A stretch of DNA of 64,000 nt from Escherichia coli. GTDB lineage: Bacteria > Pseudomonadota > Gammaproteobacteria > Enterobacterales > Enterobacteriaceae. Both the position numbers and the translations under genes were made by a program. Below are positions 22,503-22,839 of the stretch, one piece after another (the stretch's first letter is position 1; every line of letters begins with the position of its first letter). The notes beneath the pieces are model-generated. The model had not been told where the DNA came from. It saw nothing but the letters and a program-made list of their open reading frames with translations, and made no database searches. Location of the stretch: the NCBI RefSeq assembly GCF_045037415.1, contig NZ_CP173438.1; one strand, written 5' to 3'.

Positions 22503-22839
22503 GGAAGTACCTATAATTGATACGTGGCTAAAAAAACGTCAGGGAGCCATAGAGCGTAGCGCATGATGACACCGACATTTATGATTAACATCATGCACTG
22601 CAAATTTTTTTTGCATGATGGAAGAAATATCTTGAGTCTATGCCATTTTGCGTAATTTTCAGCCAATGGCATAATGTATATGAATTTGACGACTCAATGA
22701 ATATGTACTACTTAGGCCTTCAGGCTGCTAAAGGATACCTGATAGTGGGTATGGAAGACAAAATGTTTTGAACGTTGTCCCGCTGAGTTGTGAATTTGCA
22801 CAAATTTTTGAATCTTTATATGTGAAGTTGAGGTGAAGC

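Follow-up and report, generated by a model that had tools for sequence, protein, structure and literature searches.

The window analysed here, a stretch of 64,000 nucleotides of Escherichia coli DNA, carries ackA on the minus strand (21300-22502) and the divergently oriented yfbV on the plus strand (22840-23295). Gene coordinates confirmed that the two genes are separated by the predicted 337-bp divergent region, which is a well-studied control region. Within this spacer, the 8-mer GCATGATG was found on the plus strand at 22561-22568 (copy A) and 22613-22620 (copy C), with its reverse complement CATCATGC at 22589-22596 (copy B). Read along the ackA strand, copy C (22620-22613) is followed by copy B (22596-22589), copy A (22568-22561) and the ATG of ackA at 22502, the three-copy block lying 59-118 bp 5' of this start codon. 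Positions and orientations given for the copies in the original prediction were all exact on re-check, and the tract TGCAAA-T8-GCA was present at 22599-22615 as described. The copies had also been called evenly spaced: their offsets of 28 and 24 bp were correct, although the spacing is not strictly even. The spacer was 100% identical to that of MG1655 and occurred as a single copy in 5,424 of 5,426 complete E. coli genomes. Its segment 22545-22635 was identical in 5,059 genomes, with differences somewhere in this segment for 365 of the 5,424.

The 8-mer was counted 10 times in the 64-kb window against 4.2 expected, and none of 100 shuffles reached 10. The window was also scanned for 8-mers, low-complexity ones excluded, that occur three times without overlap, on either strand, within at most 60 bp. 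The GCATGATG/CATCATGC triple was the sole one recovered from the real sequence, and when the window was simulated 200 times with a first-order Markov model, any such triple turned up in only 4% of the runs, so that the cluster goes beyond chance, as had been proposed. The cluster is non-random; yet only two of its three copies are evolutionarily constrained as such. The ackA loci of 80 species were collected, and the upstream regions of 35-43 Enterobacterales were aligned. Conservation among orthologues, on which the original prediction had made the significance of the motif depend, held for copies B and C over 35 species and failed for copy A, of which only TGC was kept. The three 8-mers are three different things and not three operators. 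An account combining an FNR palindrome that includes copy B, a candidate class II promoter, pairing of copy C with copy B and a mere resemblance of copy A is one that we consider reasonably probable, taken as a whole.

Copy B (GCATGATG on the ackA strand) combines a left FNR half-site with GC, and also forms the 3' arm of an inverted repeat. Together with the adjacent TTAATCAT, it makes up a single FNR palindrome, an imperfect one that reads ATGAT-GTTA-ATCAT (ATGATGTTAATCAT as written for the ackA strand), located at 22581-22594 with its centre at 22587.5 and assigned from consensus matching and ChIP data. This palindrome matched the FNR consensus TTGATnnnnATCAA (TTGAT-N4-ATCAA) at 8 of 10 positions, both TGAT/ATCA cores included, and was the best and only match of at least 8/10 in the spacer. 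The sequence TGATnnnnATCA occurred just twice in the 64 kb. Copy B was nearly invariant in the 35 species. The palindrome ATGATGTTAATCAT was unchanged in most Enterobacterales, and together with the AAATGTC that follows it showed hardly any variation over genera ranging from Escherichia to Yersinia, Serratia, Pectobacterium and Photorhabdus. All families kept the TGAY/RTCA half-sites; genomes of Erwiniaceae and Budviciaceae (Erwinia, Pantoea, Budvicia) did so with a varying N4 spacer, which elsewhere was fixed as GTTA. Half-sites kept around a varying centre are, judged from the alignment, the signature of a dimeric site of the CRP/FNR type. Conservation of the N4 spacer and its flank (GTTAATCATAAATGTC) exceeded what FNR needs, and this segment may also be used by another factor or have a role in RNA.

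Published coordinates were placed on the window through U00096.2 = 2,433,994 - window position, anchored on ackA at 2,411,492. The FNR ChIP-seq centres reported at 2,411,410 (Table 1) and 2,411,404 (Table S5) in U00096.2 (Myers 2013, PMC3688515) correspond to window positions 22584 and 22590, and flank the palindrome centre. The ackA-pta peak was recovered by 3/3 ChIP-seq callers and by ChIP-chip in two studies, one of them earlier; transcripts in the fnr mutant reached 0.11 (ackA) and 0.10 (pta) of the wild type, and sigma-70 occupancy at 2,411,364 (U00096.2) increased from 1268 to 5613 anaerobically (Myers 2013, PMC3688515). The same study gave a PatSer ln(p) of -8.96 at ackA against a genome threshold of -10.75, that is, a sub-threshold match. 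The earlier suggestion that known sites were being seen from the sequence side was borne out, as copy B lies within this published FNR site (ChIP-chip and ChIP-seq). The core of the region, FNR control of ackA-pta, is already known. Going by the published ChIP and expression data, a single FNR dimer occupies the palindrome in anaerobic cells and activates ackA-pta.

For the ackA-yfbV target, the AlignACE motif AAAATTTGCAGTGCATGATGTTAA was previously proposed from ChIP-chip (Grainger 2007, PMC1802558). That site, TTGCA-GTGC-ATGAT, lies 9 bp further upstream and off the ChIP-seq centres, and was rejected; since its TTGCA half is specific to E. coli, it was taken as a misplacement by the motif finder. 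Locus and protein are the same as for the FNR target of Grainger 2007 and Myers 2013, which centres on copy B, and the site is here reassigned to the nearly invariant ATGATGTTAATCAT. The gain is a cleaner FNR site assignment, differing from the 2007 motif call. Look-alikes of Fur, PurR, Cra, IHF, NarL and sigma-54 sites near the 8-mers were also considered by eye, and none fit.

A repeated operator had been put forward for the triple. In such an operator, one regulator (FNR or another protein) would bind cooperatively to all three 8-mers. The three copies are exact, each contains an FNR-like half-site (ATGAT/ATCAT), and the outer two are 52 bp apart, about five helical turns. Against this, copy A was not conserved as an 8-mer, copies A and C lacked a partner half-site at FNR spacing (only copy B being complete), and a single FNR site is listed for ackA-pta (Table 1 of Myers 2013, PMC3688515), both peak centres falling on copy B. 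Changes in the arms formed by copies C and B were moreover complementary rather than identical, which points to pairing and not to a shared word. With copies that behave differently among orthologues and a single FNR-like palindrome in the spacer, a repeated operator is very improbable.

At class II FNR promoters of E. coli (dmsA, narG, nirB), one FNR dimer binds TTGAT-N4-ATCAA centred at -41.5. The ackA region resembles these promoters in having a single inverted repeat of 14 bp in which both TGAT/ATCA cores are present, FNR occupancy in vivo and a strong FNR dependence (both from the literature), and a TAnnnT hexamer, TACGCT, at 29.5 bp from the palindrome centre. It differs from them in that the outer T/A is missing from both half-sites (ATGAT...ATCAT) with a sub-threshold score, in its published position of -74.5, and in a spacer and flanks conserved beyond the needs of FNR. 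TACGCT (22553-22558, minus strand) is a candidate -10 element, with a predicted start at about 22546-22548. The nearly invariant sequence GCGCTACGCT lay at a constant spacing from the palindrome in 33 of 35 species. The most likely -10 of the activated promoter is the invariant TACGCT, 29.5 bp downstream of the palindrome centre, which would place FNR at -41.5, the usual distance for class II; the class II geometry is here deduced from spacing and conservation.

The ackA leaders of Yersinia, Serratia and Photorhabdus had about 17-70 nt inserted between CCACGTGT and the Shine-Dalgarno region. In these three genera, the FNR palindrome was shifted to -101 to -155 from the ATG, with the distance to GCGCTACGCT fixed.

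Copy A (CATCATGC on the ackA strand; 22561-22568) lies directly 5' of the conserved GCTACGCT, and its TGC alone was conserved, inside the invariant TGCGCTACGCT. The CATCA part was replaced in other genera by TCC, ACC, TCT, TTA, ATA and others. Pairing between copies B and A was maintained at 86%, equal to shuffles and free of covariation. An alternative-hairpin switch or attenuator, in which copy B would pair with either C or A, was rejected: the change of TGATG to TGACG was compensated in copy C and not in copy A. Copy A is a lineage-specific resemblance overlapping the spacer and the upstream edge of the candidate -10, and from its pattern of substitution is largely coincidental, with constraint on the TGC alone.

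FNR was centred at -41.5 +/- 4 in 19 of 23 activated promoters, and the ackA site was given at -74.5 relative to the curated start instead of -41.5 (Myers 2013, PMC3688515). If the site meant there is ATGATGTTAATCAT, the curated start would fall within the Shine-Dalgarno region, 11 nt ahead of the ATG, and FNR at -74.5 is an outlier among activated promoters. A class II FNR-dependent ackA promoter is suggested in place of this odd -74.5 case. The sigma-70 summit (window 22630) is 84 bp from the predicted class II start and counts against the class II step. Kim 2012 listed no more than two ackA starts, both weak, at window positions 22600 (5 reads) and 22725 (4 reads).

The same sigma-70 peak can be read in the other direction, with one FNR dimer also driving a yfbV-directed promoter whose -10 would be CATGAT in copy C (22614-22619), with a start at about 22626-22629. 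Towards yfbV, the peak at 22630 is 42.5 bp away from the FNR centre, transcripts of yfbV were at 0.51 of the wild type in the fnr mutant (Myers 2013, PMC3688515), and the predicted ackA and yfbV starts are 83 bp apart, equal to 2 x 41.5. Yet CATGAT as -10 would put FNR at about -38.5 to -39.5, and GATGGA, which occupies the exact class II position, is a poor hexamer. Kim 2012 placed yfbV starts only at window positions 22722 and 22179, and copy C varied where a -10 needs its bases (CGTCATGC, CATCCTGC on the ackA strand). An FNR site shared by the two divergent promoters is, on balance, unlikely.

The palindrome also bears on the reading of an adaptive mutation. An identical +T in the yfbV/ackA spacer was found in two evolving populations in connection with a fast-switching acetate phenotype, and was attributed to a putative ArcA site with reference to Liu and De Wulf 2004 (Herron and Doebeli 2013). 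Mapped onto REL606 (position 2,356,984) and onto the window, the insertion falls at 22580-22581 on the minus strand, between the ATCAT half-site and AAATGTC, beside the FNR palindrome. Slippage in the T8 tract was considered as its origin and discarded, the insertion mapping to 22580/22581 instead. That the same +T next to the palindrome arose in two populations argues for the functional relevance of the region. With the insertion, FNR and TACGCT are one base further apart; if the class II model holds, weaker activation by FNR is to be expected.

An ArcA operator would make the conserved GTTAATCATAAATGTC an ArcA-P box and the 8-mers incidental. The older 10-bp ArcA consensus is matched at 9/10 by TGTTAATCAT, FNR alone would not call for the conservation seen in the N4 spacer and downstream flank, and the adaptive +T falls here. 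Direct repeats bound by ArcA are reportedly 11 bp apart. The two TGT(T/C) repeats here start 13 bp apart, not 11 bp, and for this reason the TGTTA-like repeats fit an ArcA reading poorly; ackA, pta and yfbV are also unmentioned in the main text of the ArcA ChIP study of Park 2013. We regard an ArcA operator as quite unlikely. The interpretation of the +T would change accordingly, from an ArcA box of normal geometry to a position beside the FNR palindrome.

Copy C (CATCATGC on the ackA strand; 22613-22620) forms the 5' arm of an inverted repeat spanning 22589-22620 on the minus strand, with arms CATCATGCA (22620-22612) and TGCATGATG (22597-22589) around a variable loop of 14 nt. The arms are 9 nt long and 100% complementary in E. 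coli, with a hairpin folding energy of -10.8 kcal/mol (z = -3.2). Pairing of copies C and B was kept in 96.1% of the cells of the alignment (35 species). Double changes were found at two of the eight pairs (one with AU/GC/GU, the second with CG/UA/GC/UG), and covariation was located at alignment columns 19-50 and 25-44. None of 500 shuffles reached the observed percentage of paired cells, the number of cells with double changes or the covariation score; 215 of the 500 did equal the count of pairs that show double changes. The C:B helix was the sole prediction of RNAalifold run de novo on a 133-column alignment, and metagenomic variants displayed further types of compensatory change in the stem. 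Species-specific inward extension of the helix averaged 1.5 pairs, compared to 0.47 +/- 0.10 in shuffled loops. Copy C appears to be kept because it pairs with copy B, the arms being preserved by compensatory changes across Enterobacterales.

The T8 tract (22605-22612; A8 on the ackA strand) lies in the hairpin loop. The original prediction had described the motif copies as flanking it. The tract belongs to a variable loop, is not conserved between genera, and in E. coli B REL606 has nine residues, T9 (A9 on the ackA strand).

Strand preference was examined through wobble pairs. On the ackA-sense strand, G.T outnumbered A.C in the stem by 21 to 5 (p 0.001-0.07 depending on the null, the cells being non-independent), and the stem was paired in 96.1% of cells in sense compared to 90.4% in antisense. 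Mismatches of the G.T kind can be tolerated only when folding takes place on the ackA-sense strand, and the bias towards them is modest. The inner extension of the helix slightly favoured the opposite strand, reversing the wobble bias. The repeat probably forms a hairpin in ackA-sense RNA, provided that the RNA starts upstream of 22620, at a candidate constitutive promoter some 8 nt distal to the repeat; action as a palindrome at the DNA level is possible. No description of the conserved C:B hairpin was found in the published accounts consulted, and on the evidence of covariation it may be taken as a modest lead.

A scan for terminator-like sites in 22400-22900 returned none, and an intrinsic terminator was rejected in any case as the T run is inside the loop and not after the stem. 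A leader peptide was also considered, encoded by a 27-codon open reading frame (22511-22594, minus strand) that opens with the ATGATG of copy B and closes at a TAG in overlap with the ackA Shine-Dalgarno. It was set aside because the length and stop of this frame vary, from 5 to 50 codons between species.

A candidate distal sigma-70 promoter for ackA was recognized at 22635-22662 on the minus strand, with CTGAAA (22662-22657), a 16-bp spacer, TAGACT (22640-22635) and a predicted start at 22628-22631. CTGAAA-16-TAGACT was given as the constitutive ackA promoter by Shimada 2014. Enterobacteriaceae retained its TAnAnT hexamer and CTGAAA, at 14-16 nt ahead of the hairpin. The sigma-70 ChIP-seq peak at 2,411,364 (U00096.2) corresponds to window position 22630, within 2 bp of the predicted distal start. 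Relative to that start FNR would be at about +41, where it is expected to hinder rather than help.

These elements allow a reading in which transcription, mainly from the distal start (about 22628-22631), yields a leader of about 127 nt, and the C:B hairpin, perhaps with a AAAUGUCGG/CUGACGUUU helix, affects how stable the RNA is or how it is processed; FNR bound within the transcribed part would then form a separate layer. The distal promoter of Shimada 2014 with its conservation in Enterobacteriaceae, and the sigma-70 summit within 2 bp of its predicted start, are consistent with such a leader. So are the conservation of about 110 nt from the hairpin to the Shine-Dalgarno, far beyond the needs of a promoter, and the covariation and G.U bias of the hairpin on the ackA-sense strand. 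On the other side, Kim 2012 reported no start at the distal promoter, and Yersiniaceae and Pectobacteriaceae kept the hairpin with no comparable promoter evident. The leader matched no Rfam family, the fold of the leader as a whole was not unusual (z = -1.6), and the 10-fold activation by FNR is left unexplained. Searches of Rfam with the leader and hairpin gave only matches at chance level, none near a gathering score. A structured leader had been the other proposal of the original prediction, and it may be partly right, provided that the candidate distal promoter is used: a covarying hairpin is formed by copies C and B, and copy A has no share in it. As a full explanation of the region, the leader remains a tentative reading.

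Copy B could also serve twice, as an FNR half-site in DNA and as the 3' hairpin arm of the leader of about 127 nt in RNA; we put this forward as a possibility rather than as the expected outcome. Were it so, ackA would have two promoters, a distal constitutive one giving the structured leader and a proximal FNR class II one located inside that leader, and the curated -74.5 placement would rest on a start that is not FNR-dependent.

Two further conserved blocks, AAATGTCGG (22580-22572) and CTGACGTTT (22542-22534), can pair around the candidate -10 (22534-22580, minus strand). Their pairing was present in the minimum-energy fold of the long leader, with 91.4% of cells paired and an exchange of GC to AU between families at one pair. 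This helix was absent from the RNAalifold prediction, and is proposed only weakly, from base complementarity.

The leader block CTGACG-T7-AGCCACGTAT (22519-22542) was conserved across Enterobacterales. On the distal side, a perfect 9-bp inverted repeat, TATGCCATT/AATGGCATA, at 22639-22647 and 22665-22673, brackets the -35 and spacer of the candidate distal promoter. It was largely kept in Enterobacteriaceae and may be an operator.

The ompA leader hairpin is a 5'-proximal stem-loop that protects its mRNA against decay dependent on the 5' end. The ackA hairpin is similar to stem-loops of this type in being stable, a few nucleotides from the predicted 5' end, with a helix that covaries and a loop that varies. 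It differs by about 8 unpaired nucleotides before the stem, by a 3' arm that doubles as a DNA-binding half-site, and by a distal promoter that is only a candidate. The sRNA SdhX is reportedly a regulator of ackA. Its target is in the same leader and the control is post-transcriptional, acting about 60 nt downstream of the 8-mers, which SdhX does not involve: pairing takes place at the ribosome-binding site and start codon (Miyakoshi 2019).

By setting acetate overflow and the acetyl-phosphate pool, ackA-pta makes its own control relevant for physiology and strain engineering. What is added to the known core is modest, namely the conserved hairpin and a reinterpretation of the FNR site as class II.

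Transcription from the opposite side also reaches this region. A yfbV start inside ackA, at window position about 22179 on the plus strand (33 reads, 661-nt leader), was reported by Kim 2012, and is stronger than either ackA start in the same table. The same start inside ackA was described for Salmonella (Miyakoshi 2019). The resulting antisense RNA of yfbV crosses the entire 5' region of ackA.

Elsewhere in the window, the yfcC FNR peak at U00096.2 positions 2,415,052 and 2,415,092 (Myers 2013, PMC3688515) corresponds to about 18942 and 18902. Near this peak (18900-19000), just weak matches of 7-8/10 to the FNR consensus were seen.

Close to the yfbV start codon and about 320 bp upstream of ackA, TTCACctcaacTTCAC (22822-22837, minus strand) was the sole cre-tag match in the 64 kb. 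It is a perfect match to TTCACnnnnnnTTCAC, which we take to be the cre-tag direct repeat for CreB.
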